Shown here: positions 6,001-22,258 of the stretch, piece by piece
How positions within the stretch are numbered: the first letter of the stretch is position 1
How the letters are laid out: the number at the start of each line of letters is the position of its first letter
From: Bacteroidetes bacterium UBA6221
GTDB taxonomy: Bacteria; Bacteroidota; Bacteroidia; Chitinophagales; Chitinophagaceae
NCBI GenBank assembly: GCA_002421685.1
Contig: DISB01000016.1
Location: 378,549 to 442,548 of the forward strand
DNA: 64,000 bases
Direction: 5' to 3'
The notes under the pieces: generated by a model
Databases searched by the model: none
What the model saw: the letters and a program-made list of their open reading frames with translations, nothing else
Told to the model about the DNA's origin: nothing
Made by a program: the position numbers and the translations under genes

Positions 6001-9000
6001 CTCTGTACGATTTAGCAAATCTTTTATTCCGGTATATATATCCGCCTTGGCGCAAACAAAAGGCACTTCTTTTTCACTTGCAAAATCATAAGTAGTATAG
6101 CCAAACAAGAACGGATGACAGAGGTCGTTTAATGATAAGTTAGCACCCGATGGATTCGTGATTGCATTTATAACCACCTGGGGGGTAAGGGCAGCAAAGC
6201 CATTGGAAATACAATATGCATTAATCTCAGAACGAATGTCATTCAATTTAGAACCAACGGTGGTACAGTTATTCAGCTTATCCATTACGAAGTCCATCAT
6301 TGCACCCACTTCTGCAACTCTCCAACTGTCTGCAGAGTCCTGTATTTGAACTGGTGGAGGATTGAGGCTTGAATGATCAGAGTTAGGGTCGTTTACATCT
6401 GTATATACGTCTTTTATCCATTGAGGCACATCGGCAGAATCTAACAAAGGGTATAATACTGATGTGTCCTGTATATTAGGCGGATAAGGATCAAATACGG
6501 GTGTGCCGGTAAGCCATATATAAGCATCCTCACCATCCCAGCCTATACGGGGGCAAAAACAATTATACTTTGCATACCCTGCATCCCAAAAGGCTTCTTT
6601 TTCGTCATAAATAGATGCGATATACTTTGACCTATTCATGAGGTAGAATGACTTCAACAACTCATAATACGCCTGTTTAACATTATCATCAATAAATGTC
6701 ATATTGAGTATTTGCTGTGCATACAAAAATTTCGCTACAGCCACTTCTTCTTCCATATTGCCTGCATGGGCGTAAGCCAACTCTATTGCGATAGAATCGA
6801 TACGTTTATTATAATTTACAAAACGAATCAACTTATCTTTAATAAGCGGCTTATCAGTTGATGATGCATTTTTATAAACCGGGTCGTTAGCTAATATAGA
6901 ATCGAGGATAAAACGATTATTATACTCCGCTTGCAGAAAGGTTGTGTAACCTCTCAGCTCATTCTCATACTCCTCCAGGCTACCGTCACAAAGCAACAGC
7001 TTACAATATTCAGGGTGCAAAGGCAGTAATGCTTCAGCAATGGTATCATTAAATATGTAAATAAATGTATCTAAAGACAAACACTCAAGGTTAGTGTACT
7101 GCACACCATTTTTCCAAACAGAAGCTGGCAGGTGTACTAAGCCAGATGTGTCCTGGTATGGATGAACATAATAAAGTGGATAATCCGGAAAGGTTCTATA
7201 ACTACAGGAGTTGTTTTGAGGATAACCTTGAACACCAAAATCCATAGCACGGAATATTGAATTACTATCAGCTTTATCCGCCCGAAAAGACCTACTACTT
7301 GGACCATAACTATTCATAGTTGAATTAGCCCAACCACCATTGGCCATATATTCTGCTACACTGCCATACATGCCATACTTACCGCCGGGAGATAGGTCGT
7401 CCATCATTTGCCTTTTTTTGGCGGCGCAAGGATTAGTAGTATCTGCATACTTCAAATCTTTACAAGGAAATTCTGCCGCCACTACGGTCTTCCTTACAAA
7501 ATAATGTTCATCATTATAACAATCCGGCTCGTTATCCTTTACAAACTGGCGGACAGTATTATTTATCTCCGGACGTGAAAAACTCAACGTTTTACTTGCC
7601 AGGTATTTCCCTTTCTGCAGCCAGCTTTGTACAGCCGCCCCGGACAAGTCCATAGCTACATTGCTGTTTAACACGCTATCACTACCTATAACACCTGATG
7701 TGGCCGGTATCTGCGGTGCTCCACAATCGTCCGTTGCAGAATATATATAGTATGCTTTCGCCCACAGGTACTTACCATTGCACCCTGTTCTATACGCAGG
7801 AATATTTACTTTATATTGCAGGCTATATATACCATTTTTTTCACCATAAAAAGGGCTTTCAATAAAAAGAGAGTTGGAGGTTTTATTCTGATCAGAAAAA
7901 GCGATAGAGAAACAATCAGCAAAACCTGTATCGTAATCAGGCAATACATCAATAGGTGTTTCCAGGGTATCTGGTATGCCGATAAGGCCTGATGCTATAG
8001 TCTGGCCTTTAGGATTATGAATTGTAAAGCTTGTCTGGCCATTCGGGTCTGTTATTACCTGCTTCGGATAATGTACAAAATTACCGGCTTCACCACTAAA
8101 CAGGCTATTCAACTCAGACTGAGTCGCCCTCACATATTCGTAACGTGTGCCATGGCCGTTCCACAGTTGGTTTTCATAACCAGCACCACCTTGCCACAGC
8201 AACAAGTTGTCAGGAGAATAAACACTTTGAATAAAGGGATAGCCTTTTGCATCAGGTACGAACCGCTCGTAAATACCTTTATCAGGATTGAGTGGTGAAT
8301 AATACTTTTTAGCCCATGCCGAATTGGACAGCGGTGCTATTGAATCAGGCGTGGAGCAGGAGAGGTTATCAAAATCATTACTTCTGTACGGATTACCAGT
8401 GGTTTCGTGCAAAGTCACATCAGGGTTATAATATAAAGCACCTTGCTTAATTGGTATGGGTAAGGTCTGAATAGAAGCCCTACCTTCCTTATCGTATATC
8501 TTGTCAACGGCTAGAACATAATCAATATCGGTATTTATTTTTGTTTGAGATTGCCTGTCCCTGAGCGTACCGTCGAAATAATTGATGACATGTTTATATT
8601 TACCCTCTTCAGCAAAGTTGATTGTGTATTGCCAGTTAAGACTATCGCTGTTATGCGGGGTTGAAATAAAATAGGCATGGCATTGATGACTCAGGTTTAC
8701 CGTACCGGCATCCTGTAAATTCCAACCACCGTAAATTGCTGTTTTATAATCGTTAGAATAATCAGGCCTTATAGCCCTAACCCTATATATTATCGCTCCA
8801 TGCTCATATATTAACGGGATGTCAAAAGAATTTTCAGTAAGCCTTACCCGTGTGCTATTTTTTTTAAAATCGTATGCTACATTACTGCTAGCGCCAAAGG
8901 AATATCCGGGAGTTCCGGCAACTCCATTGTTATAGACATTATAAGTATAATCATCTATATATAACCATTCCAGTTCAAACTCAATTGGTTTAAAATTATT

Positions 9001-9678
9001 GGTAGTAACGCTATTTGTACAACCCAACGAGGAATTGGTAGATGTGCCCCAGGTAACATTCAGTGTTTTATTGTTAGTCACCGTGCCCCAGGGATATATA
9101 GTAAAGGGCACATTATCATATCGCTCCACAACCACGGATGACATTATATAAAAATTCTTGGGCAGGTCGGATCTTAATATCATATTATTTGAAGTGTCCT
9201 TTATACTGGTCACTTCTACAAGAAGCTTTTGGTAACCTGAAAACTTGTAGACATTCGCATCTACATAAGACACTCCGGAATCCGGATCATACGAAACCTG
9301 CAGGGTAATATTTTTTGACGTCGGAGTTCCCGGGCTTGCATAGTTAAAACACCAAATCGTCAGCTCAATATTATACAAATATGGCGATGTAACTACAACA
9401 TTCGTATCATGGTTCACACCAACGAAAATGTAATTTTGTACGCTTTTGGTGAAAAAATCAGTCAAGCTGGGATTGCTTACTAACAAATCGTATTCATTGC
9501 TTTTAGTAACAGGCAATGAGTCGCTATAAGCATTATTAGGCTTGTAACTTCCGTTATCTTTAATATCATAGCTATAAAGCCTTTCGCTTTTTTCATCAGG
9601 CAGATACTGAAAAACCTGTGCAACTGATGACAAGGAAATCATGATTCCAATGCAGAGAAATAATATTCGGTTATACAT
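22..9678 (-). CDS. Giant (3218 aa) secreted RHS/YD-repeat polymorphic-toxin-type protein. It has a signal peptide, an ~1880-aa non-YD N-terminal region, a YD-repeat shell with RHS-associated core, and a 216-aa variable C-terminal tip.
   Basis: Uninterrupted 9.66-kb ORF. The N-terminus MYNRILFLCIGIMISLSSVAQ looks like a Sec signal peptide. YD-type repeats are readable from YYHDLAGNLVKTV onward (YYDRAGRVVFSQ, YTLYDNQGRVVETG, YDYDQVSGKVNMLTY, YVYDADNRVKEVY, YNYDALGNITEL, YEYDNTGNMV, YDYDGLGNRVRK, YVYDASGNLL). RHS core hallmarks are present: ITDHLGNV, YYPFGM, FREYDTRIARFWSVDPL...IDGKDLEGLE. Confidence 0.92.
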   Translation of the reverse strand: MYNRILFLCIGIMISLSSVAQVFQYLPDEKSERLYSYDIKDNGSYKPNNAYSDSLPVTKSNEYDLLVSNPSLTDFFTKSVQNYIFVGVNHDTNVVVTSPYLYNIELTIWCFNYASPGTPTSKNITLQVSYDPDSGVSYVDANVYKFSGYQKLLVEVTSIKDTSNNMILRSDLPKNFYIMSSVVVERYDNVPFTIYPWGTVTNNKTLNVTWGTSTNSSLGCTNSVTTNNFKPIEFELEWLYIDDYTYNVYNNGVAGTPGYSFGASSNVAYDFKKNSTRVRLTENSFDIPLIYEHGAIIYRVRAIRPDYSNDYKTAIYGGWNLQDAGTVNLSHQCHAYFISTPHNSDSLNWQYTINFAEEGKYKHVINYFDGTLRDRQSQTKINTDIDYVLAVDKIYDKEGRASIQTLPIPIKQGALYYNPDVTLHETTGNPYRSNDFDNLSCSTPDSIAPLSNSAWAKKYYSPLNPDKGIYERFVPDAKGYPFIQSVYSPDNLLLWQGGAGYENQLWNGHGTRYEYVRATQSELNSLFSGEAGNFVHYPKQVITDPNGQTSFTIHNPKGQTIASGLIGIPDTLETPIDVLPDYDTGFADCFSIAFSDQNKTSNSLFIESPFYGEKNGIYSLQYKVNIPAYRTGCNGKYLWAKAYYIYSATDDCGAPQIPATSGVIGSDSVLNSNVAMDLSGAAVQSWLQKGKYLASKTLSFSRPEINNTVRQFVKDNEPDCYNDEHYFVRKTVVAAEFPCKDLKYADTTNPCAAKKRQMMDDLSPGGKYGMYGSVAEYMANGGWANSTMNSYGPSSRSFRADKADSNSIFRAMDFGVQGYPQNNSCSYRTFPDYPLYYVHPYQDTSGLVHLPASVWKNGVQYTNLECLSLDTFIYIFNDTIAEALLPLHPEYCKLLLCDGSLEEYENELRGYTTFLQAEYNNRFILDSILANDPVYKNASSTDKPLIKDKLIRFVNYNKRIDSIAIELAYAHAGNMEEEVAVAKFLYAQQILNMTFIDDNVKQAYYELLKSFYLMNRSKYIASIYDEKEAFWDAGYAKYNCFCPRIGWDGEDAYIWLTGTPVFDPYPPNIQDTSVLYPLLDSADVPQWIKDVYTDVNDPNSDHSSLNPPPVQIQDSADSWRVAEVGAMMDFVMDKLNNCTTVGSKLNDIRSEINAYCISNGFAALTPQVVINAITNPSGANLSLNDLCHPFLFGYTTYDFASEKEVPFVCAKADIYTGIKDLLNRTEIESAIKNAILTGSSAYTFNLSSTNVYENKIAAELGISSSASVFVKGFIDTIRYPEPGNPTNIVVKKYIKLKIYSASSSDTVKLYIKKKYSSSPYLDGASSVQTDAVSCINEDNEAAYIGYVARSSAVVDMYINGGGTTNRYYVWSNGINIMEPVSDESIAGAITCIDIKNAIDDFKSDKATYGYDDAFNHPLYQTTITNYLNYKFRKNHSYADYNALMAGCAVTDLTELKNHFATIEVTCTTDTATFIQAIKGYTTRNIIESRILYGNGQTKFGIDLSTVPDNSLLAYKNFIASLVAPGNFTYLSDKPLTVFDRTSCSPGTSLSTYMTPYSSNAVTVYINNKQYAYNMYAFSGSYSTPKQHADMVEGLSTYTQQCVGSFTSPDIAVFRSADYATSDKQDYLNYISGLTAITGDAIIDSISTSNLKQRITAYAGNTLSYKDANCSKRKTDLYVYNGAQSGHWGQTLLENTILTGVQSVLSTDQLFLEEDDLAVYNSDTSLTVFRKANGVHWYRYFDNNNVMYNVYLAPPENPIFDIHMLDLDSIKIGPGVDSIYMFTAYMHFPSISSVAFECRGYADFVVGYGRKVENVILHTQPGLDHCLDKIDCEYWMLQDAIHAGKIRYLQYYDSTTNAITDDMLSFLVNNANDSLRLCTQAQKNHIMRYYHDLAGNLVKTVPPPTGSNPFAVEKETVYHYNSSNKPVSQETPDGGITRFYYDRAGRVVFSQNSKQQVDDKYSYTLYDNQGRVVETGQVEIDCSSGCPYITNATEYSAYDMLVYIRNQNREEVVRTYYDEEPLDLSVQSGYTLSRQENLLGRVSAITYYESKSTDLWTPFVEPYFGIYYSYDMQGNVKTVTYSSSRLIGIKQKYKRVDYDYDQVSGKVNMLTYNRGGADQFYHKYVYDADNRVKEVYTSNDGMIWNRDAEYTYYKHGPLANLKLGDDQLQSLDYAYTIQGWLKAVNGDILRPDKDMGQNGLPGDLSYARDVMAMALNYYNNDYRPIDNTVAATYLPEGNKSMYNGNIPRQTLSLNTVGNLQRDYRYDQVQRLKLAAYAEVDEDLLSVASPSNIFKNTYNYDALGNITELNRYDNYSYHMDSLTYTYESGTNRLNIVDENIAGYTSAPHDLEQEPYTPANSINYEYDNTGNMVRNYYGNQKVSWNHLGKITDIVDTVTNTIIHYDYDGLGNRVRKDVIDTVSAELIVNKGEYYVYDASGNLLTAYNIKTNLSPCMYIKKANEGLYGEPDFIQFILDNVDIYGSFATNFIDLAIANENAWAVNITGSYGAGFYMQHDNDVFHRLLFATVDYLDDMAVFDMNMTVGQSSEHLFAAALMNSNLMPFLDQIFDYSGERMKLFEHYFKTMGPTELQDLWTDVGLGGAYSTNMATYVASIESQMPGQEIQAINRILQIVNNEPPPKNMSANFLNAVVFDPVIFSSPNLRTPTPNSIGPFTVFEEAILNALYNTNHPGPVFDFFNQWINGPTLLNNNVTLLEQLTILYNALKGVVLTDFVNNASDPAATLDKAICNTEGIDPIAYAEAIVQHSTLGQLTAYGPGYVPLAEDTLMLAEHHIYGSDKLAVKNYGLADSIMNTYHHDPDVPPHRALTTRIPWYSRGLGDLVFTYPGASEPWGNMYSGERYTGRKIGVKHFHITDHLGNVLVSLQDRKSGHLANSGDTLYDYWQPNLADVSDYYPFGMKMPGRILNNDNPGKYGYNTQRAEQDIYKSKSADLGKYNVHYQYKFREYDTRIARFWSVDPLAASYPWNSTYAFAENRVIDGKDLEGLEFISDKAEAAYYGISVVQLRISRDIQKQAAQTPQSQTASKTESKYKYIPQTEDYGMGIQGSARIAAGPSLHFGFKSLSVGGAYKETPVLGFNLGTEAVNVEGMSRNTDGHSRLFTTTLYGDLFLGGGFERKEYVDENGFERKVETTTLFSVGIPGISYQISDEKDFNARTKIRKHGLSIGSKLGLGLNVQAEGFLKFGSYDNTDPGDFEEAAPKSKP
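25..672 (-). other. Variable C-terminal tip (216 aa) downstream of the RHS core. It is Gly-rich and beta-strand-like, with no recognisable enzymatic toxin motif.
   Basis: The sequence FISDKAEAAYYG...GLSIGSKLGLGLNVQAEGFLKFGSYDNTDPGDFEEAAPKSKP follows DLEGLE. Sampled lines of coding DNA here are about 37-38% GC, against about 48-58% in sampled lines of the adjacent core. Confidence 0.7.
673..4020 (-). other. YD-repeat / RHS-core coding portion of the 3218-aa gene (about aa 1887-3002), ending in a DPxGL-like DLEGLE motif
   Basis: The first clear YD repeat (YYHDLAGNLVKTV) is encoded at ~3980-4018. The last core residues (DGKDLEGLE) are encoded at 673-699. I mapped both by reverse-complementing the nucleotide sequence. 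Confidence 0.8.
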
Positions 9679-9690
9679 ATTATGTCAGCT

Positions 9691-10404
9691 TTATTCGGTT
9701 ATTGTTAGTAGGTGATATCTTGCATATTTATGAGCTAATGAAAATTTTTCGTTTTCATGTTTAAAAAACCTGTCAGTCAAGATTTTTGACTTGTCAAATT
9801 GGTATTTAAAATCAGTAATACGGTAGATGCGGCTATAGCCAGCATTTTCTCCAAATTTATTTTTCTCCTCAACTTCAAACTCTATGCTTTTGATTAATAA
9901 AGTTTGTTTTTCAATTTCAACTGTAAACCCGGCGAAGTCGTGATTTCTGAAAACCACATCTATTTTGTGGTTCCCGTTTGGCAATATCTTAGAGCTGAAC
10001 GTGCCATGCTGCGCAATAATTGAATCGGATATATCTATAATATTGGGTTGAATTATATCGGAGGAAGATAAACCGAGCTTTTCCTTAAGTACTTCAATCG
10101 TCGAAACGGTTATTGTCCGGGATGGCATGTCTACTTTGCAGTAGTATTTCTTATTTACTATTGATATGGACGATGCATTACTGTCTATATAACCATCTGC
10201 ATTTTTGTAATACTGCCCGACTATGCTATCCTCAATCTTATTTTCAACTACATTTTTCAGGAACACTTTATAATTATATGCAAGAACAGGCTTGTCATTC
10301 GATTTTTTGATTTTATCGAATAAACTACTGGTAAATGTCTGTGCAGTCATATACTGAACACCCGACATAGCGATTAAACTGAGCAATAAGAGGTATTTTT
10401 TCAT
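9691..10404 (-). CDS. Secreted 237-aa protein of unknown function, encoded between the two giant genes
   Basis: ORF with signal-peptide-like N-terminus MKKYLLLLSLIAMSGVQYMTAQ. It starts 7 nt after the upstream stop and ends 12 nt before the RHS gene start. Confidence 0.8.
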   Translation of the reverse strand: MKKYLLLLSLIAMSGVQYMTAQTFTSSLFDKIKKSNDKPVLAYNYKVFLKNVVENKIEDSIVGQYYKNADGYIDSNASSISIVNKKYYCKVDMPSRTITVSTIEVLKEKLGLSSSDIIQPNIIDISDSIIAQHGTFSSKILPNGNHKIDVVFRNHDFAGFTVEIEKQTLLIKSIEFEVEEKNKFGENAGYSRIYRITDFKYQFDKSKILTDRFFKHENEKFSLAHKYARYHLLTITE

Positions 10405-10411
10405 GCTGTCA

Positions 10412-13400
10412 CTATTTTTTCTGGTTCGAGCGCCTGCTTTCGCTTATAGTTACAATGCCCTGCTCTGTTTCTTTTTTCACCCTGATTAATAAGCCCTGCT
10501 GATCGTACTCATAAAAAGTTGAAAAATTATTCTCATCCTGCTCTGCAATCAATTTGAAAGAAGCCGGGTCATACACAAATGACTTTACAGTTGCATCTAT
10601 CGGAACAAATCGGATATCGTCAAAATAAGCTCCGGCCGGCAACCTGATAGCAACTCCTGTCCATACACCTGCCATATTTATTTCACATTCTGCCTTATAC
10701 CACCCATCTATGTTTCCTGTTTTTAACTGGAAAGGGTATTGATTACCTCCGAGTATCATTTTTGTATTCGAAGCTACTGTTGCCGCGCTGCCTGATGTCG
10801 CCTTCAGCCAAAGGCTTACAATATATTTCCTGGCCCCGTCCAACGAAAAGTTCTTCGTGTTTACCCAAGGTGTCGGCGAGTTATATCCGGCATCTTTTAT
10901 TTCGGGCGATATGCTCCTGACATTTATATCAAAATCCTGGTTGTTGCTGCAATACAATGAGTAGGTACCTGTATGACTTTCACTGGATGTAATAGTGTTA
11001 CCGGATGAGGCAGTGAGATTCAACCTCACATAGTCCTGCTTATAACGGGTAACAGTACTCTGCACGCTATTGAATGCCTTTGCAAAAGGAGTAAAGTAGT
11101 AATATGAGCCCTGGTATAGTCCGCGAAGGTATTTAGGCACCATAATATTATAATCCTCAAACCCTTCAAAACAGAAACCTTTTTGCCTTACATTAGAGCC
11201 TACGGCTACCGGCAATGATTTGTTATAGCCATACTGGGCACTTGAATATTTACCCGTAGCATCCACTTCTTCTATTGCATTACTAAAGACATCATACTTC
11301 AGAATCTTACTCTGTGCAATCCATTTTGATGTATTATCCGGTACGATTCCGTCAATTACGGTTCTGTTTGCCACCAGGTAGCTCCAGAATTCATTGCCAG
11401 AAATACTGTACGTACCATCCTCGCTAATATTACCTTGGGAATAGTCCCTGTTTGCATTGTAAGCGTAACTTTTAACAGGCCTGTAATTACCCTTATGGCC
11501 TAAAACATATCGGTTCATAATCTTCATATCCTTATCGGTAACCGACACAGGGTATATATACGGATTATAAACACCATACGTTATAAGTTGAGAGTCTCCG
11601 TAATCAGAACTATACGGAGCTGCCACGTCTGAGAACTCTGTTACCGAAAGGTTCAACACTTTACCGTATGCAGCATTAGCGTCAATAAGTCCGCTAACAC
11701 TTGTAGTATAAGGGTTAGATGTCAATGTAGCGGATTGTACATGCTGATCGAGGTTATTACGACGGCCTGAACGTAAAACTTTAACGAATACGTCATTTAC
11801 CTTGCTACCCGTCGTTAAGCCGCCAGGCCAGAGCACATTTCCGTTTGCATCTTTCAAAGCCCTTAATACCACCTGCCTGAATGGTTGTGTCTGAACATAA
11901 TCAACCGAATCAACAGTATCGCACTGCACCCTGTTACGTGGATATGGTTCATAATAAGAGTAGCAATAAAATCCCGGTGGTAAGAAAGGCTGTATAGACG
12001 GTGTATTATTGACCGGGTTATGGGCTTTCCAATTATCTTCATCGTCCACCACCCACGCTTTTACTTTGTGTGTAACACTATTTTCTGTATAGGTCAACAG
12101 TAGTTCGTCCCCCGGCGTAAACCTGTCCCTGTTAAGGAACAGCCGCCCGTAATAAGAATCATACAACTGGTGTCTTTCGATAACGAGTGAATCAGCCTTT
12201 TCTTCATAACCTATATTTGTATAAGCAGGCTGCATGCCCTCATATGCCCAGTATGCCGGGATATTTAGATTATAATTCCCCTTAAACTGGCTGCCTGAAC
12301 TATATTCGTTATTAGTACGGGTGAGCAATACCGCCCCTGTTTCGCTATCATACAGCAAATTTTCAGTCTTAATTTTTGCACCATGGTCATATGTTTCTAT
12401 AGAATTGAGTATACCATATTTCTGTATGATTTTAGTTGAAACCATTGACCTGAATATTGTTTTCTCCTCTTTATCAGGGAAAAAGGCAGTGGGTATAGGT
12501 ATAGGAACAAAAACGAACAAAACCACATTGACATTTATATCAACATTTCGACGGTACGCCCTTATATCCCTTTCCCTGCTGTCTATTGTGAAGTCCATTT
12601 CTTCTCCAAGTCTAATGGGCTGAACAGTATATCCTCCGGCAGTACCCCTTGTCCGTACTACTGCATTTACCTGGTTATCAAGCTTACCTTTACTATCAAT
12701 CTGATATTTGTAAGTCATACCCGACACTTTTTCCCTTTTAACATTAGAGCCGTCTGTATGAATGATATAATAACTTGTCTCTTTAGGTTTACCGTGCATG
12801 TCATTAAACTTCAGCACATACCCCTGCATGGCTTTTACTTCTTCGTACTTTTTTCGCAGTGTTTTGGTTTTAACAGGAGATGGGGCGTCTTTCTCCGTAT
12901 AATCTACCTCAATCGGGAACTCCTTGGCTGTGTAAAAGGTATGTTCTTCCTCAGACTGGGCAGAACGTGCGTTGCCAATGTGTATACTTCTGACTGTTAT
13001 CTTGCTATAGCCCACAACCGGCGGCGGGAAAAATGATTCTCCAAAAGGTTCTTCCTGGAAAAACTTTATAGCTGGTAATAGTCGCCCTGCGCTGCCTGTA
13101 TAGGGAACAGGAGCTTTGAACGGATTTTCATCACCACCTATCATCGGCTCATAACTCGCAACACCGGTGCTGACATTTTTATCCCATTTACTGTCCCATT
13201 CTGTATAGTCATATGTTTTGCCATAGCTGGCATCTGCACCACCGGCAAGTACACTCCAATTATCATTAAGTGTCAGTTCTTTAACCCTGAGCCCACCGCC
13301 ATCTTTTGTGAGCCCGGGCACATTTAGCCTCACCCACGATTTAGACGTAATAATGCTCCTGGCTTTTTTGTCTTTTTCTACAAATCTGACTATAGGATTC

Positions 13401-16400
13401 TTAGCTATTGTCAATAGCTCTGTGGCCGAGGCTTTTAATCCCTGCAATATTTGTATTGCGCCACCACCTCCACTATAACCGGGATAGATAATATGTGGCA
13501 GATAATGCCGGCCAATATTGAGTCCGTATATAGTAGCAGGGTGTAACAGATGATTGCTATTGCTTCCCGGACGCTCGCGTTTCAATCTTACGTAACCATA
13601 ATTATTGTCGTTGGAACATATGCCTACTTCTTCTATTTCCGCATATCCCTTTATGTGCTCGTACTTACCTTTGCCTGTTATATCCAGGTTAAAGCTATAA
13701 TATAATGTGTTTGTATTTTCAAGGTAATTGTCTTTCATAGACAGTGCCGAATTTTCACGGTCTATTCTTCTTTTGAAATAGACGTAGTTATTTACCTTGC
13801 TTACACTTTCATATAAATTCGCTTTTTGTTCAAAGTTTGCAGTATTACCCACGCCCTCAACTTTAAACATTTGCATACTCCGCTTGTTCTGAACATATGA
13901 ATAATCATCACTTTCATACTCTACGTGTATTTTACCTCCTGAGGGCAACTTTATATCAGTGAGCGACCACGCTCCCACATTAGCATCAGCACTACCATCC
14001 TGATTGACATATGGATACTCAAAACTGCCTAACCCTGAAAATAAAGGTTGATAATTACCCCACCTGTCTTTTAAAGCAAAATTGTATTGCGGATTTAACC
14101 CATTATATGAAAAGACGTATGGGCTGAGTAGATTCTTATTTGAACTTCCATATTTTATATAAATTCTTTCAAGAGTAAGCTTCCCGCCATCATAAGTATT
14201 CGCCTCGTTGCTATTAGGTGAAAAGGAGTTGGGTATCCCCTTACATAACCTGTAAGAATACCTGAAAATAACAGTTTTAATCGGTACTGCTGAATTACCG
14301 GACTCGTTTATATACCGGTCATGTTTATTGTACAACTTGATTGAGTCAAGTTTATACGAGCGTTGGTTTTCGGAACTTGACCCGGCATACATACCTCCTA
14401 CATCTACTGTACTACCTGATGGTAATATAGCGGCGGTCACACCCTTGCCATCTTCACGTTCAGAAGTATAGAACTCAGCGACATAGTTTTTTGTTTCGAT
14501 AGAGCGTATATGCCATATCTGCTTTGATCCAGCGATATAGCTCCCCTTATCATCATCTCCATCAGACCAAAAACCGGGATTGTATTGTGCAGAATCGGAA
14601 TTATACGGCGCACGCCACCTGTAATCATCGTGAGCACGTGTGTAATTTATCTTTGTAAAACTTCCCAGGTCATCATCAGTGGGCCCATCTCCCAATACAT
14701 CTACATAATCTTTAGAGAGTACTGAAGTCAGCAGGTAGCTATATGCGTATGCGGGTTTACCGGTATGAGAATAAAAATTCTCCTTACCCTTACTATTATT
14801 TTTCGTATCGTCTCCGTTATCAATCTTTACTAAACCATTAGCAAGGTTAGCGTTGCCTGATGACACATTGAAAGACACCTCGCGGGTAACATGGTTTAAA
14901 GCCGGAATACCGTAGATATACCGGCGTCCGTCCGGCAATGTCTGGGTAAACTCGGTAAGATGATGCGCCTTTGCCTGGTTAGCATTTGTACCATATCTAT
15001 TTTCTTCGGTAACAGCAGGATTGGAAAAAGGCTGTGACACTCCGTCACTAAAGCTGATGATTTTTTTATGCTGTGCAACGTCGTTCACATCAGCTTCGGC
15101 TGAAGTGATGAAAGAGAGTAAATTGGCCCTGGTTGTCCTATCTGTTGCACTACCTGTATATACATAACTATTCCCAAACTTTCCGGGCATTGAGCCGGCC
15201 CCTGCTCTCCCCTTTGTATACAAAGTATTTTCGTTTTCACCCAAGTAAAGTGCCTTCTCGTTAAACAGGCTGGTTGTCAGTTGTTGATTATTATAGGTCA
15301 ATTCACCTGCTTGCTTAAAATACACCTTTTCATATAAGCTACCGGTATCCTTTGCACGAAAAGGTAACATCTTCCAGGGGCCGGATTTATTCTCATTATC
15401 ATAAAAAGTCAAGTCAGTACCCAGCTCAAACAAGTTACCCAGACCGGCTTCTATTTTAACATCAAAACTTGTGCTTTTAGGAGGGTTAACAAACGGGTCG
15501 AAAACGGTGCCAATATCATTTCGGTATGGGCGGAACATGCCGCCTGTGCCCTGTCCGCTTATTGAATACACGTCGTATGTCATTGATGAAAGGGGGAGAT
15601 TTTTCAATGTATTATTGTAATACCCGTCATTATCACGGCTAAAATCCATAATACCTTCTTTAGGCGCATTTTCAGAATATAAGTACCCATACGCCTGCCT
15701 TGAACCATCTTGCCCGTACTTCAGCGTAGACTTCATAATACTTAAGTGTACATTAGGGAAAGCATAGAATATCTCTCCACCAAAACGTGTTTGAAACTGG
15801 AATGTTTTTTGCACACTTTCATTAGTAATCACCGGCACATAGTTCTGTAAACCTATAGGTATTGAAGAACCAAAAGACGCGCCTGCAATGCTCTGAGAGT
15901 GATACTTCCTCTCTACCTTATTAGTCTTCTCATTAAATCTTTCTCTCTTATATGATTGCGAGGCGCTGGCATTTATTCCGAATGACAAGTCTTTCAAACC
16001 CGTTCTTGAGTTGAAGCCTGTTCCTCCTGAAATTCCAATACCGGCTCCTACATCTTCGGTAATGGTCATAGGAATGCTCAACCCTGCATTCACGTCAATA
16101 TCAGCGCCCGACTGAGACCCGAGTCCGATATCAACACCGGCACTAGCAACAGGAGTAGATACAGTAACACCTGCATTAACACCCACACTCACCCCCTTGT
16201 AATTATTGAATGCGATATAGTTGCCTACACCAATAGATAAATTAATACCGTATTGGTTGGGATTGAAGCCAAACAACTCTGCAGAAACATTTGCACCAAC
16301 TGCTATGCGCCAATCAGTTTCTTCATTAATATTCAGTGTTTTTTCGACAGTTTCTCCATTATAATCATCTGGTAGGCCCCTTACAGAACGATTTATTTCT

Positions 16401-16693
16401 CCTGGATTGATATTCCAGCCTAAACCTACCCAACTTGCCTCTTGTTCTATTCCAACACCCGCATGATATGAAATATTAATCGGGAAACCCTCAACATCCA
16501 TTAACGGTATATTGTATGTGAAGTCCCCAGAAAACATATCTACCATATCCGTGGTACCTACAGGCTCAAAGCTTTGTACTTCCGGCGTAGACGGGCCACT
16601 GGTAAGCGCCAGTGCGTAATTAGGGAAAAACAATTGGTAGGTGAATGAAAGAAAAAGCACTTTTGCTGTTGTCTTTATGAGGGTCGTTTTCAT
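10412..16693 (-). CDS. Giant (2093 aa) secreted protein with an SpvB/TcB-type N-terminal domain, a Gly-rich segment, degenerate YD-like repeats and a C-terminal jelly-roll-like region plus a final YD repeat
   Basis: Signal-like N-terminus. FSGDFTYNIPLMDVEGFPINISYHAGVGIEQEASWVGLGWNINPGEINRSVRGLPDDYNGE matches the SpvB N-terminal consensus (GxxxYxIPI...LxLxY...GxGWxL...I.R....G.P.Y). Scattered YD-like repeats are present: TYKYQIDSKGKLDNQ, LLYDSETGAVLLT, LKYDVFSNAIEEVDATGKY, FYEYDQQGLLIRV. YFDDIRFVP lies near the C-terminus. Confidence 0.88.
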   Translation of the reverse strand: MKTTLIKTTAKVLFLSFTYQLFFPNYALALTSGPSTPEVQSFEPVGTTDMVDMFSGDFTYNIPLMDVEGFPINISYHAGVGIEQEASWVGLGWNINPGEINRSVRGLPDDYNGETVEKTLNINEETDWRIAVGANVSAELFGFNPNQYGINLSIGVGNYIAFNNYKGVSVGVNAGVTVSTPVASAGVDIGLGSQSGADIDVNAGLSIPMTITEDVGAGIGISGGTGFNSRTGLKDLSFGINASASQSYKRERFNEKTNKVERKYHSQSIAGASFGSSIPIGLQNYVPVITNESVQKTFQFQTRFGGEIFYAFPNVHLSIMKSTLKYGQDGSRQAYGYLYSENAPKEGIMDFSRDNDGYYNNTLKNLPLSSMTYDVYSISGQGTGGMFRPYRNDIGTVFDPFVNPPKSTSFDVKIEAGLGNLFELGTDLTFYDNENKSGPWKMLPFRAKDTGSLYEKVYFKQAGELTYNNQQLTTSLFNEKALYLGENENTLYTKGRAGAGSMPGKFGNSYVYTGSATDRTTRANLLSFITSAEADVNDVAQHKKIISFSDGVSQPFSNPAVTEENRYGTNANQAKAHHLTEFTQTLPDGRRYIYGIPALNHVTREVSFNVSSGNANLANGLVKIDNGDDTKNNSKGKENFYSHTGKPAYAYSYLLTSVLSKDYVDVLGDGPTDDDLGSFTKINYTRAHDDYRWRAPYNSDSAQYNPGFWSDGDDDKGSYIAGSKQIWHIRSIETKNYVAEFYTSEREDGKGVTAAILPSGSTVDVGGMYAGSSSENQRSYKLDSIKLYNKHDRYINESGNSAVPIKTVIFRYSYRLCKGIPNSFSPNSNEANTYDGGKLTLERIYIKYGSSNKNLLSPYVFSYNGLNPQYNFALKDRWGNYQPLFSGLGSFEYPYVNQDGSADANVGAWSLTDIKLPSGGKIHVEYESDDYSYVQNKRSMQMFKVEGVGNTANFEQKANLYESVSKVNNYVYFKRRIDRENSALSMKDNYLENTNTLYYSFNLDITGKGKYEHIKGYAEIEEVGICSNDNNYGYVRLKRERPGSNSNHLLHPATIYGLNIGRHYLPHIIYPGYSGGGGAIQILQGLKASATELLTIAKNPIVRFVEKDKKARSIITSKSWVRLNVPGLTKDGGGLRVKELTLNDNWSVLAGGADASYGKTYDYTEWDSKWDKNVSTGVASYEPMIGGDENPFKAPVPYTGSAGRLLPAIKFFQEEPFGESFFPPPVVGYSKITVRSIHIGNARSAQSEEEHTFYTAKEFPIEVDYTEKDAPSPVKTKTLRKKYEEVKAMQGYVLKFNDMHGKPKETSYYIIHTDGSNVKREKVSGMTYKYQIDSKGKLDNQVNAVVRTRGTAGGYTVQPIRLGEEMDFTIDSRERDIRAYRRNVDINVNVVLFVFVPIPIPTAFFPDKEEKTIFRSMVSTKIIQKYGILNSIETYDHGAKIKTENLLYDSETGAVLLTRTNNEYSSGSQFKGNYNLNIPAYWAYEGMQPAYTNIGYEEKADSLVIERHQLYDSYYGRLFLNRDRFTPGDELLLTYTENSVTHKVKAWVVDDEDNWKAHNPVNNTPSIQPFLPPGFYCYSYYEPYPRNRVQCDTVDSVDYVQTQPFRQVVLRALKDANGNVLWPGGLTTGSKVNDVFVKVLRSGRRNNLDQHVQSATLTSNPYTTSVSGLIDANAAYGKVLNLSVTEFSDVAAPYSSDYGDSQLITYGVYNPYIYPVSVTDKDMKIMNRYVLGHKGNYRPVKSYAYNANRDYSQGNISEDGTYSISGNEFWSYLVANRTVIDGIVPDNTSKWIAQSKILKYDVFSNAIEEVDATGKYSSAQYGYNKSLPVAVGSNVRQKGFCFEGFEDYNIMVPKYLRGLYQGSYYYFTPFAKAFNSVQSTVTRYKQDYVRLNLTASSGNTITSSESHTGTYSLYCSNNQDFDINVRSISPEIKDAGYNSPTPWVNTKNFSLDGARKYIVSLWLKATSGSAATVASNTKMILGGNQYPFQLKTGNIDGWYKAECEINMAGVWTGVAIRLPAGAYFDDIRFVPIDATVKSFVYDPASFKLIAEQDENNFSTFYEYDQQGLLIRVKKETEQGIVTISESRRSNQKK
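16363..16606 (-). other. SpvB/TcB-like N-terminal domain coding segment of the 2093-aa gene (about aa 30-110)
   Basis: Motif match described for the parent CDS. Coordinates were derived from the amino-acid index. Confidence 0.7.
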
Positions 16694-16700
16694 ACGGCTG

Positions 16701-17303
16701 CTATTTTATCACTAACGTGGGTAAATTTTTTAAAGTTTTTTTTGAATAAGTCGCTTGTATATATGGATTGTCATTGTACCGGTCATTAAAAACCAGTTTC
16801 AGGCCAGACTGTAATTCCGGCAGTTGAAAGCCCACCACAATGGTATTATATGGTGCAAGACCATAGTTATCTTCATAATGATATGTGGCAGGAAAAAACT
16901 GCTGTTCATCGCAGAAAAGCGATATGTCATTTGCTGCTAATGACTGGTAATACATTATCATTTCACCTGCTTTTTGCTTCTTCTGAATATCGTCAATCAC
17001 ACTTCCGCCAAGGTCATTTTTGGATACATTAATGATGAAAAAAATGTGCCCCTCTAATTCATTAATCCTGCTCTTTAATAGCTCTGTATTTGTATCTTGT
17101 AGTTGTTCACTATATTCTCTGCATGCCATGTAGTCAGCTGTAGCCAGCTGTATGATATACTCCGTATTTCCACTAATGATAGTCTGCCGGGTTGAGTTAT
17201 TGCTCTCCATGTATCTGAGATATTTTGCCGGCTGCAAATCACCACTTGTATTGCAGCTGAACAAATACATACATAAAAGCAGTAGTTTAATTACCTTTTG
17301 CAT
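16701..17303 (-). CDS. Lipoprotein (200 aa), unknown function
   Basis: Lipobox-like N-terminus MQKVIKLLLLCMYLFSC. The start overlaps the upstream Skp-like gene by 17 nt, and the stop lies 7 nt before the 2093-aa gene start. Confidence 0.8.
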   Translation of the reverse strand: MQKVIKLLLLCMYLFSCNTSGDLQPAKYLRYMESNNSTRQTIISGNTEYIIQLATADYMACREYSEQLQDTNTELLKSRINELEGHIFFIINVSKNDLGGSVIDDIQKKQKAGEMIMYYQSLAANDISLFCDEQQFFPATYHYEDNYGLAPYNTIVVGFQLPELQSGLKLVFNDRYNDNPYIQATYSKKTLKNLPTLVIK

Positions 17304-17793
17304 ATTTTTTGTTTACATAATCAGTTAAATCATCAGTCAGATCGCGCTTTTCATCTGCATATAACAATGATCCTGCACCATTAGCGCCAATTAGCAGCAT
17401 CAACTGTTTATCTTTCCCATATTGTTCAATAACTGGATTAAGTCTTTCCCAAATTTTTACGTTTATTTCCTTGTTCGACTTGGCATAATAGTCATTGAAA
17501 ACCTGCTGTGCATATATTACCTGGCTATCCAGGTGCGCATTATTCCCGACAACCTTTTGTAACATCTTCAGGCTATCTATGGCTTCACGTATTTTATATA
17601 GATTCTGGGCTGCGGCATTTTCGAGGTCTTTTTTGAATTCATAATTTTCGGCCAACCTGCCAATATCAATGTATGCTACGTCTTTTTTAGACATAAAATT
17701 CCCGATTGCATAAATTGCGAGCAGCAATACAGCTACGCATATTAAGTACAATAGCGCTTTATCCAGTTTATTAAATTTTACAGATTGGGTCAT
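17287..17793 (-). CDS. OmpH/Skp-family periplasmic chaperone-like protein (168 aa) with an N-terminal membrane anchor or uncleaved signal
   Basis: Hydrophobic segment ALLYLICVAVLLLAIYAIGNF. This is followed by VAYIDIGRL..., a long helical middle, and LMLLIGANGAGSLLYADEKRDLTDDLTDYVNKKY, which is typical of Bacteroidota OmpH-family C-termini (..vL......lLYad...DiT..v...lN). Confidence 0.75.
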   Translation of the reverse strand: MTQSVKFNKLDKALLYLICVAVLLLAIYAIGNFMSKKDVAYIDIGRLAENYEFKKDLENAAAQNLYKIREAIDSLKMLQKVVGNNAHLDSQVIYAQQVFNDYYAKSNKEINVKIWERLNPVIEQYGKDKQLMLLIGANGAGSLLYADEKRDLTDDLTDYVNKKYAKGN

Positions 17794-18932
17794 CTTACAA
17801 ATAATGGATTATAGTACATAAATGGAACGATAAATAACTCACCTTTTCTTGTTCTGATTTCTAGTTCATATTTAGACGTATGCTTAAGGTTTACACGATC
17901 ATGAAGTTTAATAGTAAACCAATTATAGCCATTCTTCATAGGCATTAGATTATCTTTCACAGGCACTTCATCTCCTTTTTCATTTAGTATCCTGATTGCC
18001 AATGTGTCGTTTGGTATATCACTCCTGTACTTCAATTTTATTTCCCCGGTTGCATTTAGCCGGGTGTCCCCAATGTGATTTTCAAACTCGTAATATGACT
18101 GATTTGCAACTACTTCTTTCAATAAAGTATCCTCAATAATTGTAAACCTCCATGGTTCGGCGCCACCTAGAAGTATATTTTTATAGTATGCATCCACAGT
18201 CCACACATAGGGTTGATATTTTTTCAAACTTCTTGCAGTAACAGGATACATCAGGCTGTATCCAATCAATCCTTTTTCCTGAAATATGGGATTGTTTCGT
18301 GTAATTGCTGAGATATTGTTCTGGTTTTCCTTGAGCTCTACAAGCCTTAGTTTGTAGTTTAATTGTGATGCAATAGGATGATTTACTACCCACGACAGCA
18401 TCGGGTTCATTTCATATATTTTTGCGTTATCTTCAGGATCAATCAGGTTAATAAGAAAGATATCACCTACCGTCTGGTATATACAACCGTCAAATAATGA
18501 TTCATTGTGGTTTTCAGAGTGTAATGTATTCAAGTCAATTTCTACACAATACTCATAAGTTCCCTGCGGCAATTTTTTGTGATATAAAAACAACTCTTTA
18601 AAAGCATTATCAGAAAAACTCCATTGGGGGCTATTAGCCTTTTCCTTTGACATCCTATTTACCCCGGGCTCTATAGTTGTCCTGTACGTGTAAGCAAAAC
18701 GTAACGACATATTTTTGTACTTTAGAGAACCTCTTACAACTGCCTCAATTCTTCGATTGCTGTTGTTCATTAACTGATAATTAAAGACGTTGTCCGGCGT
18801 TATCTCGAGCCCGTCCAGCAATGTCAAATCAACGACAATATTATATTGAGCTTCAGACCTGTATGGCAGACTACACAAAATCAGTGCATACAATAAAAAC
18901 TTTTTGCACCGGGATACAAGCAGAGTATTCAT
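17790..18932 (-). CDS. Secreted 380-aa protein, unknown function. It shares a beta-sandwich-like motif with the N-terminus of the 937-aa protein.
   Basis: Signal-like N-terminus MNTLLVSRCKKFLLYALILCSLPYRSEAQ. The stop overlaps the Skp-like start by 4 nt (ATGA). The motif AFKELFLYHKKLPQGTYEYCVEI resembles SFFELLKSTGEVPPGTYHMHVAL in the 937-aa protein. Confidence 0.8.
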   Translation of the reverse strand: MNTLLVSRCKKFLLYALILCSLPYRSEAQYNIVVDLTLLDGLEITPDNVFNYQLMNNSNRRIEAVVRGSLKYKNMSLRFAYTYRTTIEPGVNRMSKEKANSPQWSFSDNAFKELFLYHKKLPQGTYEYCVEIDLNTLHSENHNESLFDGCIYQTVGDIFLINLIDPEDNAKIYEMNPMLSWVVNHPIASQLNYKLRLVELKENQNNISAITRNNPIFQEKGLIGYSLMYPVTARSLKKYQPYVWTVDAYYKNILLGGAEPWRFTIIEDTLLKEVVANQSYYEFENHIGDTRLNATGEIKLKYRSDIPNDTLAIRILNEKGDEVPVKDNLMPMKNGYNWFTIKLHDRVNLKHTSKYELEIRTRKGELFIVPFMYYNPLFVR

Positions 18933-18955: not shown

Positions 18956-21769
18956 CTATTTAATTTTTTCACAATCTCTTTTCATCTTGAAATGCCAATC
19001 TATGCCTACCAAACCTGCCCATAAATTGTTCTTATCAGAATATAGATTGTGTGTAAAGTGAGTGTACCTGAACTGTAGTCTCAGCCCTATAGGTTTCGTT
19101 TCAAACAAGTATGCTAATCCGGCTGTTACAGATAACTTTTCTACACCGGTTTTACTCCATGCAATATCCGGTCCTCCGTTAACAGTAATATTCTTATTGA
19201 TGCTTTTACTAATGCTGTTATTGATAAAGTATAGGTCGCCGCTTAGGGAACTATCATTTGCAGGAATGCTCATCCAACCTGCATTTAGGCTGGTCATGTT
19301 CATTCCAGAGCTATATATATACCCCAACTGAACGGTTTTACTTTCGTAACTAACCAGTTCAGCGGTATTCTTGTTGTGGTTATACATGAGCATGAAACGA
19401 TGAGCTGATCTGCCTTTTCTAACCTGGTAAGTCAACCTGGATGTAGTAACCTCACCTATAATAGGCCTTTGCGAAATTGAAAAAGTATCATTAAATGCTC
19501 TGAAAGTAGTGAACGGCTTATACGACATGTATAAATTTGGATATCTCTTGAAATTAGTTTTAACATCGAAACCCCACCTCTTGTTATATCCTGTTGATGC
19601 AAATGAAGATTGTTTAATAAAGTTATATTGTACACCAAGAACAATTAAAGACTTGACAATAGTTGCATTAGCTCCTAAAGTGTACCTTTCTGTCGCGTTG
19701 CGTTTAATAGGCATGGCGCTATTCTCAAATAACTTTCCCATATGCTCCCACTCGCCCCTTATGGAAGAATTGACAGGTTTTACCAAGTATTCTGCGCCTA
19801 TTTTCGCCGCCGTTGTCTCTTTACCTGTTTGCCTTAGTTCCGACATTTTATTATAAGAGGTTGCCCCCTCTGATTGGATTAATAAATTATCACCAAATCG
19901 GCCGTTGTAAACAAATGACAAGACATGGACGGGCTCCATGAAAGATTGAGGGATAACGTCTTGTTTAAAATTTTCGCTTTTCAAAATGCTTTTTGCAGGC
20001 GAGTAGGTATAATATATTAAACCAACATTCTGCTGTTCATAAATTCTGGAATCGGCACGCAACATGTATGAATTATAAGCGTCAACATTGCCGTCCCGGG
20101 ATATATACTCAGTTTTACCAATGGTAGCGCGTGTTTTAACAAACCCAAAGTCATATCCCAATCCACCACCTTTCAGAACTTGCCCTGACATGGTATAATC
20201 GGATTCATACTGATTTAGAATCCCGATATCAAAATTAGTTACCCCCCTGATAAATTTTGATGTTTCGCTTTCAGGAAGCAAGTCCGATGTGGCATTAGCA
20301 AGTTCTTTATAGGAAGGATTGCGATTATTCAATTCATTCAACTTAGCATATGTAATGGCAGAATCGAGATACATTTTATTATTGTATTGCTCGAGTATTT
20401 TTGAATACTTTTCTATTCTTTGTTTGTTCTTTTCATATTTTTCGTACTGCTCTCTTGCTTTGGCCCTTTCATCATCAGCCAGACCAGACTTGACTACGTC
20501 AATACCAGGTAAAAGACGCTCACCATTCATTGTTTCGATATCAAAACCATACTTTTTCTGAAACAGGCTACGGATTGAGTAATTTTCAGAGTTCAGGCTA
20601 CTGATTAAATGTGTATACGAATCTCCCGCACCCATATTTTTTGTCTCGTTGTATTTTGCTTTGAAAACGGTAATTTTTTCCTGCAATCGGCTCTTAGACT
20701 CTTCAACATCATAATGTACTCTTATATAGCTCGCCTTTGCTTGTCTTCCTATATCCTGCGTGGTATAATAACCCTCCAGCACAACAGGTACATTTTTGAT
20801 TGTAGTATGTACAATCCCGCTTACCTCTTGATAAAAATTATCCTGTTGAGAGTTAGGTTCTTGTCCATTCCCAAAACCGGTTGAGAAGCCCAAATCACCA
20901 CGTGTTTCCTGATCGCAGTTGTCTTTCTTATAAAGTTTTTTTGTCCGGGAACTGATAGACGTGAAATTAGACAGGCTATTATCTTCTATCGAAAAGGCTT
21001 TGTTTTTCAAACTGGTTCTTTCATCTTCAATCTTATATTTCATTCCTGTTCCGGGTTTGACTTCGTACCTGCCTAAAAACCATTTATCAAAATACAAGGC
21101 ACTATAGGCTTTGTCATCTGTCATTTCAGGAACCGCAATCACACCTTTTTTATTCCCTATCTTTCTATTGATATGTGTGTTTATTCTTGTCAACTCCTCT
21201 TTTGACAGCCCATCTTTTTTTGCATTTCTGTTATTAATTCTTATACGTCCTTTTTTATGAGATGGCGCAAGAAGATTATTTATCCTGTTTCTTATATCTG
21301 AATTGTAGGATAATGTACTATCTATACCAACTGTAAAATCTTCAACATGAAATAAATCGCCGTACAAAGTAAATAGTGCGACATGCATGTGATAGGTACC
21401 CGGCGGTACTTCACCAGTACTTTTCAACAGTTCAAAAAAGGAATGATTTTTATATCTGGTAGTGTCGCTTTTTTCAAACTTAAGGGTTACAGAGTTTGCT
21501 CCGTTGTGAAATAATAACCTTTCAAAAAACAGGTGATACAATTCAACACTATCAGCGGTTCTCAGTTGGTAACATTGCACGCTTACATTCAGCCTAATTG
21601 TAGTGTCTAACTGATAACTGATTTTTTGAAAAATCTCATCATCTTCAATAAAGGGAATCTCAAGAGAAAAGATATGTGCATCATTCCTGCCTTGCCCAAA
21701 ACCCTTATGTACTGTTACAATGAGGCTAAGAGTAAAAATGGTGATGTATATATGTAATAGTTTTTTCAA
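18956..21769 (-). CDS. First gene of the operon: 937-aa signal-peptide protein with an N-terminal beta-sandwich-like domain, a central coiled coil and a beta-rich C-terminal half (putative outer-membrane barrel)
   Basis: N-terminus MKKLLHIYITIFTLSLIVTVHKGFGQ. Charged heptad-like stretch DDERAKAREQYEKYEKNKQRIEKYSKILEQYNNKMY. The C-terminal ~430 aa show alternating hydrophobic patterns with Y/F/W girdle-like residues (LSVTAGLAYLFETKPIGLRLQFRYTHF...WAGLVGIDWHF). Confidence 0.8.
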   Translation of the reverse strand: MKKLLHIYITIFTLSLIVTVHKGFGQGRNDAHIFSLEIPFIEDDEIFQKISYQLDTTIRLNVSVQCYQLRTADSVELYHLFFERLLFHNGANSVTLKFEKSDTTRYKNHSFFELLKSTGEVPPGTYHMHVALFTLYGDLFHVEDFTVGIDSTLSYNSDIRNRINNLLAPSHKKGRIRINNRNAKKDGLSKEELTRINTHINRKIGNKKGVIAVPEMTDDKAYSALYFDKWFLGRYEVKPGTGMKYKIEDERTSLKNKAFSIEDNSLSNFTSISSRTKKLYKKDNCDQETRGDLGFSTGFGNGQEPNSQQDNFYQEVSGIVHTTIKNVPVVLEGYYTTQDIGRQAKASYIRVHYDVEESKSRLQEKITVFKAKYNETKNMGAGDSYTHLISSLNSENYSIRSLFQKKYGFDIETMNGERLLPGIDVVKSGLADDERAKAREQYEKYEKNKQRIEKYSKILEQYNNKMYLDSAITYAKLNELNNRNPSYKELANATSDLLPESETSKFIRGVTNFDIGILNQYESDYTMSGQVLKGGGLGYDFGFVKTRATIGKTEYISRDGNVDAYNSYMLRADSRIYEQQNVGLIYYTYSPAKSILKSENFKQDVIPQSFMEPVHVLSFVYNGRFGDNLLIQSEGATSYNKMSELRQTGKETTAAKIGAEYLVKPVNSSIRGEWEHMGKLFENSAMPIKRNATERYTLGANATIVKSLIVLGVQYNFIKQSSFASTGYNKRWGFDVKTNFKRYPNLYMSYKPFTTFRAFNDTFSISQRPIIGEVTTSRLTYQVRKGRSAHRFMLMYNHNKNTAELVSYESKTVQLGYIYSSGMNMTSLNAGWMSIPANDSSLSGDLYFINNSISKSINKNITVNGGPDIAWSKTGVEKLSVTAGLAYLFETKPIGLRLQFRYTHFTHNLYSDKNNLWAGLVGIDWHFKMKRDCEKIK

Positions 21770-22163: not shown

Positions 22164-22174
22164 GTAAGTCATTG

Positions 22175-22258
22175 TGCCCAGAACAGGAATCGAACCTGCA
22201 CTCCCTTGCGAGAACCAGATTTTGAGTCTAGCGCGTCTACCAATTCCGCCATCTGGGC
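22175..22258 (-). tRNA. tRNA-Leu (anticodon CAA), class II with a long variable arm. CCA is not encoded.
   Basis: The reverse complement reads GCCCAGATGGCGGAATTGGTAGACGCGCTAGACTCAAAATCTGG...GGTTCGATTCCTGTTCTGGGCA. The acceptor GCCCAGA pairs with TCTGGGC. The anticodon loop is CTCAAAA. Confidence 0.9.

Follow-up and report, generated by a model that had tools for sequence, protein, structure and literature searches.

A conserved giant protein beside an RHS toxin of Bacteroidota as a proposed, very divergent TcB-type partner in a genome without TcA

Contig DISB01000016.1 of Bacteroidetes bacterium UBA6221 (Chitinophagaceae) carries a gene for a 2093-residue protein, here called E, on the minus strand at 10412..16693 of the 64,000-nucleotide stretch that was analysed (contig positions 378,549 to 442,548; hereafter the window). 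Coordinates given below are window positions unless another contig or locus is named, and all of the features they describe lie on the minus strand. We read the protein as the second, conserved giant in an RHS toxin module that occurs in Bacteroidota, and as a TcB-type partner, though a very divergent one, of G, the 3218-residue, TcC-like RHS toxin encoded at 22..9678. We put at about one half the probability that E works together with this toxin at the cell envelope, with private chaperones and a barrel protein replacing the missing TcA context. An earlier reading made from the sequence alone (the sequence-only reading) had placed the open reading frame (ORF) exactly where the ORF list and translation put it and had called its product a TcB-like partner. 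The partner claim stands for an SpvB-N motif, an RHS-like fold, an end in YD repeats, co-location with G and the lack of TcA, but not for the propeller, the TcdB mid-domains and most of the SpvB domain, none of which was found.

The pairing of the two giants is seen most clearly in a comparison of 82 related loci collected by tblastn and iterated profiles. The order (A)-B-(C)-D-E-F-G recurs across these loci in many Bacteroidota families, and a homologue of G, recognized by its N-terminal non-YD region, lies downstream of E in all 68 loci with more than about 1 kb of downstream sequence; the 14 loci without a G partner all end within about 1 kb of E. The same genome holds a second complete A-B-C-D-E-F-G module (contig C7, ~153900-175000; loci L106 and L107), in which the E copy has 2113 residues and is 38% identical to E. 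Co-conservation with the RHS gene had been set beforehand as a test of the partnership, and it is found in every informative locus and again in the second module. Our literature search found no paper describing the module.

The E family is large: over 3900 proteins, each about 2000 residues long, match E from end to end, all of them unnamed or 'hypothetical', from Chitinophagaceae, Flavobacteriales, Saprospiraceae, Sphingobacteriales, and Bacteroidales, and homologues occur in at least 469 species genomes. Distribution is patchy: of 401 evenly sampled Bacteroidota genomes, 35 (~9%), from 27 of 179 genera, carry E, and the sole other sampled genome of the host's genus has no E. Searches of the whole protein and of five pieces against Pfam and NCBIfam at E<=10 gave no match, nor did sequence searches of the Protein Data Bank (PDB) with E, with a full-family profile or with an N-terminal profile.

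The N-terminus supplies a first line of evidence for kinship with TcB. A Sec-type signal peptide without a lipobox cysteine (~residues 1-30; 16604..16693), read from the sequence, predicts that E is Sec-exported, and a conserved A-L-T-x-G-P junction follows it directly in an alignment of 48 homologues. Residues 29-116 form the best-conserved block of the family and are strongly acidic, with 14 acidic and 2 basic residues. Within this block, residues 43-106 (16376..16567) align to SpvB positions ~11-75 when the profile of the E-family N-terminus is compared by hhalign with a profile built from 17 SpvB domains that lie above the Pfam cut-off and come from other Bacteroidota genomes (95.8% probability, E 6.9e-9, 57 columns, score 55.3); among 21 controls, 20 with shuffled columns and one reversed, none exceeded 13% probability or a score of 24.7. 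At the level of sequence, this profile-profile comparison settles that residues 43-106 are homologous to the SpvB/TcB N-domain over its first ~65 positions. The earlier statement that the segment matches the SpvB consensus closely is thus right about homology and overstated in 'closely', as Pfam SpvB (PF03534) has no match in E even at E<=10. Comparison of the E-family profile with a single SpvB protein by hhalign gave no match either, and the method worked only with an SpvB alignment. Among 48 family N-termini, SpvB is the most frequent Pfam match (9/48, all sub-threshold, best E 0.0038), with DUF6531 in 4/48 and OMP_b-brl in 2/48 (best E 3e-5). The N-terminal domain of TcdB2 and YenB is homologous to the plug of RhsA, a type VI secretion system (T6SS) effector, and in Tc toxins builds a constriction of negative charge within the RHS barrel (PMC8765631). 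By analogy, the E motif would be a plug or constriction in an RHS barrel; the structural model of the motif itself is unreliable (predicted local distance difference test, pLDDT, <45).

In a genome-wide SpvB scan the only match was not E but a different gene on contig C21 (from 685028), whose 2142-residue product is of a typical build, with an SpvB domain recognized by Pfam and numerous DxDGDG loops of the FG-GAP type. Its context is unrelated to the operon and it served only as a yardstick; BLASTP of E against it gave E 0.055, with the two motifs equally far from the signal peptide. Two shorter proteins, of 1111 residues (L087:527-3862, minus strand) and 1308 residues (L086:765-4691, minus strand), have the N-motif of E (residues ~31-116, 42-49% identical) and, at their other end, an RHS repeat, and look like minimal versions of E. 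A transitive link to SpvB through these proteins recovered the terminal RHS repeat and no SpvB match.

The fold of the C-terminal half supplies the second line of evidence. An AlphaFold2 model of residues 1000-2093 (37-sequence alignment, pLDDT 76) had 37 Foldseek matches in the PDB at E<=1e-3, mostly RHS cocoons: SGS1 (6e-9), TcdB2-TccC3 (9e-9), T6SS Rhs cores (~1e-6), YenB (1e-5), and teneurins, with binary-toxin translocase pores (CDTb, iota Ib) at ~1e-5 and weaker. We infer that the fold match belongs to residues ~1281-1850 (11144..12853), which are modelled as a long antiparallel beta-sheet with degenerate YD-like repeats; such patterns were read by eye at ~residues 1325-1470 and 1795-1835. 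At the end of the protein stand YD hairpins that are nearly invariant in the family (~residues 2037-2087; 10433..10585). Pfam RHS_repeat has no match in E. Against a profile of the RHS region of G, hhalign aligned only residues 2058-2073, to the first YD repeat of G (E 0.016), and TIGR01643 reached only the last hairpin (residues 2047-2071), with 14.6 bits against a cut-off of 15.8.

Before the hairpins lies a jelly-roll domain resembling carbohydrate-binding modules (CBM; ~residues 1950-2036, 10586..10846), which is modelled at pLDDT ~90 and is matched by Foldseek to the CBM-containing xylanase CtXyl5A (probability 0.97). The C-terminal ~540 residues are replaced in about one quarter of the homologues; PF02018 is found in two, and for two others with a replaced C-terminus the source annotation gives the name of an FN3- or PA14-domain protein. 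The sequence-only reading had described only degenerate YD repeats and a jelly-roll-like segment near the C-terminus, and both descriptions are borne out: the last hairpin alone aligns, below threshold, and the jelly roll has a high-confidence model, the CtXyl5A match and PF02018 in some homologues. It had also asked whether structure prediction would give a TcB-like shell and propeller; a shell-like fold emerges from Foldseek, albeit at low TM-scores, and no propeller does.

In at least 14 distant loci (L036, L039, L043, L048, L057, L062, L063, L065, L070, L079, and L081-L084) E is split at ~residues 1850-1900 into two ORFs, the second of which has 350-940 residues and carries the jelly roll and the terminal YD module. 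The split may be either a true two-gene form or a frameshift.

The same fold matches bear on an alternative in which E is an empty, teneurin-like closed cocoon, self-plugged by its own N-motif and acting as a scaffold that does not touch the RHS toxin cocoon. Teneurins and SGS1 are among the matches, a plug motif and a shell-like sheet stand in one chain, and E has neither an RHS core nor a toxin tip; however, ~1170 residues separate the motif from the sheet, at least 14 loci encode the C-terminal module separately, and the strict pairing speaks for a function that E shares with G. We regard a self-contained cocoon of this kind as very improbable.

The absence of a TcA gene, which had been noticed for the locus, holds genome-wide: in an assembly to which marker genes give 100% completeness, neither TcA domain, PF18276 or PF03538, is found at the sensitivity of Pfam, the PF03538 half of the test being the weaker one, as its control search matched in no control genome. 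A different docking partner in place of TcA is a reasonable inference, for which the conserved envelope genes of the operon are the obvious candidates.

The part of E that joins the motif to the RHS-like sheet was modelled as residues 30-1229 (37-sequence alignment, pLDDT 61). Its middle region, residues 331-1280 (12854..15703), has many invariant residues and a GDGxxDDD loop, the only loop of the GDGxxDD(D) type in the sequence. Pfam gave no match to the middle region at E<=10, and Foldseek against the PDB gave no match to the model at E<=1e-3, neither to TcB nor to a propeller. The model has pLDDT ~70-90 over residues ~530-1130, and residues ~330-1130 are, as modelled, without structural relatives.

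Between the N-motif and the middle region, residues 117-330 (15704..16345) form a Gly/Ser/Val-rich beta-meander in the AlphaFold2 secondary structure, with about twelve long strands at residues 112-326. Six consecutive strands (residues 125-228) are strongly amphipathic, hydrophobic residues alternating with small or polar ones; the difference in hydropathy between even and odd positions is 3.3-5.1 per strand, and the six strands together hold only seven charged residues, of which the first strand has four, at its ends. In the long C-terminal sheet three shorter strands reach the same level, the mean there being 1.8 versus 3.0. The best Foldseek matches of the residues 30-1229 model are transmembrane barrels (a designed 10-strand barrel, Pla/OmpT, OmpG, and autotransporter beta-domains), all of them weak (E >=4.7e-3). 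The meander is also the least conserved part of the E N-terminus. It is possible that residues 117-330 are a membrane-embedded beta-barrel.

Such a barrel is central to an alternative in which E acts on its own as a surface adhesin built like an inverse autotransporter, with an N-terminal barrel anchor, a ~1750-residue passenger and a lectin-like tip on the target, so that it would bring cells together for the RHS toxin and build no joint cocoon. The strands that follow the N-terminus, half of them strongly amphipathic, the barrels as nearest structural neighbours, the OMP_b-brl matches in two of the 48 members, the variable CBM-like C-terminal module and the private Skp-like chaperone of the operon all speak for it. 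Against it, the barrel signals are statistically weak and fall in the least conserved segment of the N-terminus, and an adhesin leaves unexplained both the homology of the N-motif to a domain found inserted in RHS barrels and the RHS-like fold of the C-terminal half. We judge it unlikely. The same strands allow E to be imagined as a replacement for TcA, in which the acidic SpvB-N-like motif would be the constriction and the amphipathic strands a beta-barrel channel across the outer membrane of the producer or of the target, giving a Tc-like injection device whose conduit is a barrel and not the alpha-helical, pentameric syringe of TcA. This idea we consider distinctly unlikely.

A further alternative concerns how the giants leave the cell. 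SprA of the type IX secretion system (T9SS) is encoded in the genome (contig C21), and among the 401 sampled genomes it is present in 35/35 carriers of E, with E in 0/88 genomes that lack SprA. On this basis E and G could be T9SS-dependent cargo or surface proteins, the small genes of the operon providing only folding or holding chaperones and no export route of their own. However, 86 of the 88 SprA-negative genomes come from a single family, and the co-occurrence, having little independent weight, is therefore only compatible with T9SS dependence and not evidence for it. NCBIfam finds no T9SS C-terminal sorting domain in E (whole protein and last 150-250 residues, E<=10) and no T9SS C-terminal domain in G, whose C-terminus is an exchangeable toxin tip. 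Deletion of lolA3, the family to which gene F probably belongs, had no effect on gliding or on T9SS-dependent amylase secretion in Flavobacterium johnsoniae (PMC11885536). T9SS dependence of this sort seems unlikely; it concerns the export route and is compatible with E being a TcB-type partner. As to other machines, no secretin (PF00263) is found anywhere in the genome, though it carries two modules, so that a dependence of the module on a T2SS-like machine cannot be general; and no large machine is visible among the ORFs, viewed without a run against any family library, in the 11 kb just beyond the window edge.

Several observations weigh against reading E as a TcB-type partner of G at the envelope. 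The match covers ~65 of 287 SpvB positions and leaves ~220 unmatched, and neither a beta-propeller nor TcdB mid-N or mid-C domains were found in E by Pfam (E<=10) or Foldseek. With low TM-scores for the C-terminal half (0.07-0.14) and a tool that gives no list of aligned residues, the likeness is one of fold class and not of a superimposable cocoon. The RHS region of G, at ~1100 residues, is long enough to close a cocoon alone. Sec signals stand on both E and G and are absent from Tc subunits, and the pairing of E with G is seen in gene order and co-occurrence. The meander that could hold E in a membrane is modelled at pLDDT ~45-70, its barrel-like Foldseek matches not being significant. Finally, in view of the SprA co-occurrence, E may be exported through T9SS instead of through the operon's own barrel protein.

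The genes around E form a tight operon, A-B-C-D-E-F-G, with neighbours lying 7-23 nt apart or overlapping by 4-17 nt and a G+C content of 0.35-0.41 compared with ~0.48 in the surroundings. About 400 nt beyond the head of the operon, where the G+C content steps from ~0.35 to ~0.48, lies a tRNA-Leu(CAA) gene (22174-22258, minus strand); tRNA and step are compatible with an island boundary. Gene A (18956..21769; 937 residues, found in 54/82 loci), whose start codon is apparently TTG, had no match in Pfam, NCBIfam or the PDB; its C-terminal half shows an outer-membrane-barrel pattern and, near its end, an aromatic motif like a beta-signal with a basic tail of 10 residues after it, and the product is probably an outer-membrane beta-barrel protein. 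Gene B (17790..18932; 68/82 loci) encodes a 380-residue secreted protein with a Sec signal that shares a domain with A, the B paralogue of the second module matching the A-family profile at 1e-34. Gene C (17287..17793; 50/82 loci) encodes a 168-residue OmpH/Skp-like chaperone with an N-terminal hydrophobic anchor, which matches Pfam OmpH above the cut-off (E 5.5e-8, 33.6 bits), and gene D (16701..17303; 67/82 loci by iterated profile search) a 200-residue lipoprotein with the lipobox L-F-S-C. In G, which has a Sec signal, RHS_repeat scores 29.5 bits, DUF6443 matches residues 354-437 (E 3.5e-4), and Rhs_assc_core matches residues 2909-3001 below threshold (E 3.8e-4); the protein also carries an extra N-terminal region of ~1880 residues. 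That E and G might be paralogues over these N-terminal 1880 residues was considered and rejected, as hhalign finds no relation.

Between the two giants lies gene F (9691..10404; 69/82 loci), which encodes a 237-residue secreted protein with a Sec signal; the sequence-only reading was right in describing both this gene and the RHS gene beyond it. The protein matches NCBIfam NF053579 (LolA3_fam) with E 8e-11 and 41.9 bits, below the 83-bit cut-off, and had no match in PDB searches. Genes in the same position score 99-188 bits on LolA3_fam in five Flavobacteriia-type loci, one of them from Flavobacterium, and 33 and 63 bits in two further loci. Because same-position genes elsewhere pass the equivalog cut-off, F is probably a LolA3 orthologue. 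LolA3 of Porphyromonas gingivalis does not bind LolB and was concluded to have a separate function (PMC13103446), and the available parts of neither report (PMC11885536; PMC13103446) mention an RHS context for LolA3. The conserved position of F suggests that the client of LolA3 belongs to this module.

Since E has no propeller and the genome has no TcA, we propose that the E-G pair would be assembled in the cell envelope with the help of the private chaperones. The N-terminal motif would insert into an RHS barrel, that of E itself or that of G, and either the open C-terminal YD edge or the N-terminal motif would tie E to the RHS cocoon. The pair might then be held at the surface of the producer through the amphipathic segment, the barrel protein or both, where the variable lectin-like end of E could contact the target cell. 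On this proposal the module would be a contact-dependent antibacterial weapon and not a free-floating injection complex, and as it comes without a known injection machine the toxin may be delivered by an unstudied route.

The E family has thousands of members and is a constant companion of RHS toxins, yet neither Pfam nor NCBIfam has a model for it. What is well understood about RHS toxins concerns those on T6SS spikes or TcA syringes, and E bears on how Bacteroidota giants exported by Sec might pass the outer membrane and reach a target. The 'orphan' LolA3, studied in F. johnsoniae and P. gingivalis, gains a candidate client from being wedged between two giants. A family that keeps a plug motif and an RHS-like sheet without propeller and TcA, together with the genetic tools available for F. 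johnsoniae, makes the problem testable, and should the module prove to have its own delivery route, it would add a new way of delivering interbacterial toxins in a major environmental and host-associated phylum.

Several known systems can be set beside the module. LolA3 of F. johnsoniae (Fjoh_0605) and of P. gingivalis (PGN0947) belongs to the family that holds the position of F, but it was published as an orphan paralogue (PMC11885536; PMC13103446), and the window copy scores only 41.9 of the 83 bits. T6SS Rhs effectors such as RhsA of Pseudomonas protegens (PDB 7q97) have an RHS cocoon with a plug domain homologous to the TcB N-terminal domain (PMC8765631), and resemble E further in the weak DUF6531 matches of four of the 48 family N-termini and in fold matches at ~1e-6. 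Compared with them, E lacks an RHS core, a toxin and any PAAR or VgrG-binding part, and because both giants carry Sec signals they cannot be delivered by T6SS loading.

The Sec-dependent RHS/YD toxin WapA of Bacillus subtilis and the eukaryotic YD-shell proteins, among them the teneurins and mosquito SGS1 (PDB 8fjp), are exported by Sec, as E is predicted to be, and used at the cell surface, as is proposed for E, and SGS1 is the top fold match of E (6e-9). SGS1 combines its shell with lectin-like domains. All of these are, unlike E, single-chain proteins without a paired second giant and without LolA3, Skp-like or barrel helpers.

The Tc BC complexes (TcdB2-TccC3, PDB 4o9x; YenB-YenC2, PDB 4igl) are the comparison on which the description of E as a TcB-type partner draws. 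Unlike them, E lacks a beta-propeller gate and the TcdB mid-domains and retains only the short N-terminal part of SpvB, in a genome without TcA; a LolA3-like gene stands between E and G, G has its extra N-terminal region, and the two lie within an envelope-helper operon of an environmental Bacteroidota bacterium. Features that E has gained are the Sec signal, the membrane-style amphipathic segment, the large middle region without structural relatives and the lectin-like end. In both cases, however, there are two neighbouring genes, the first with an SpvB-N-type motif and the second with RHS repeats, a core and an exchangeable C-terminal toxin, and the C-terminal half of E matches the TcdB2-TccC3 and YenB cocoons by fold. 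TcB ends in shell strands that continue into TcC, and E ends in an open YD hairpin.

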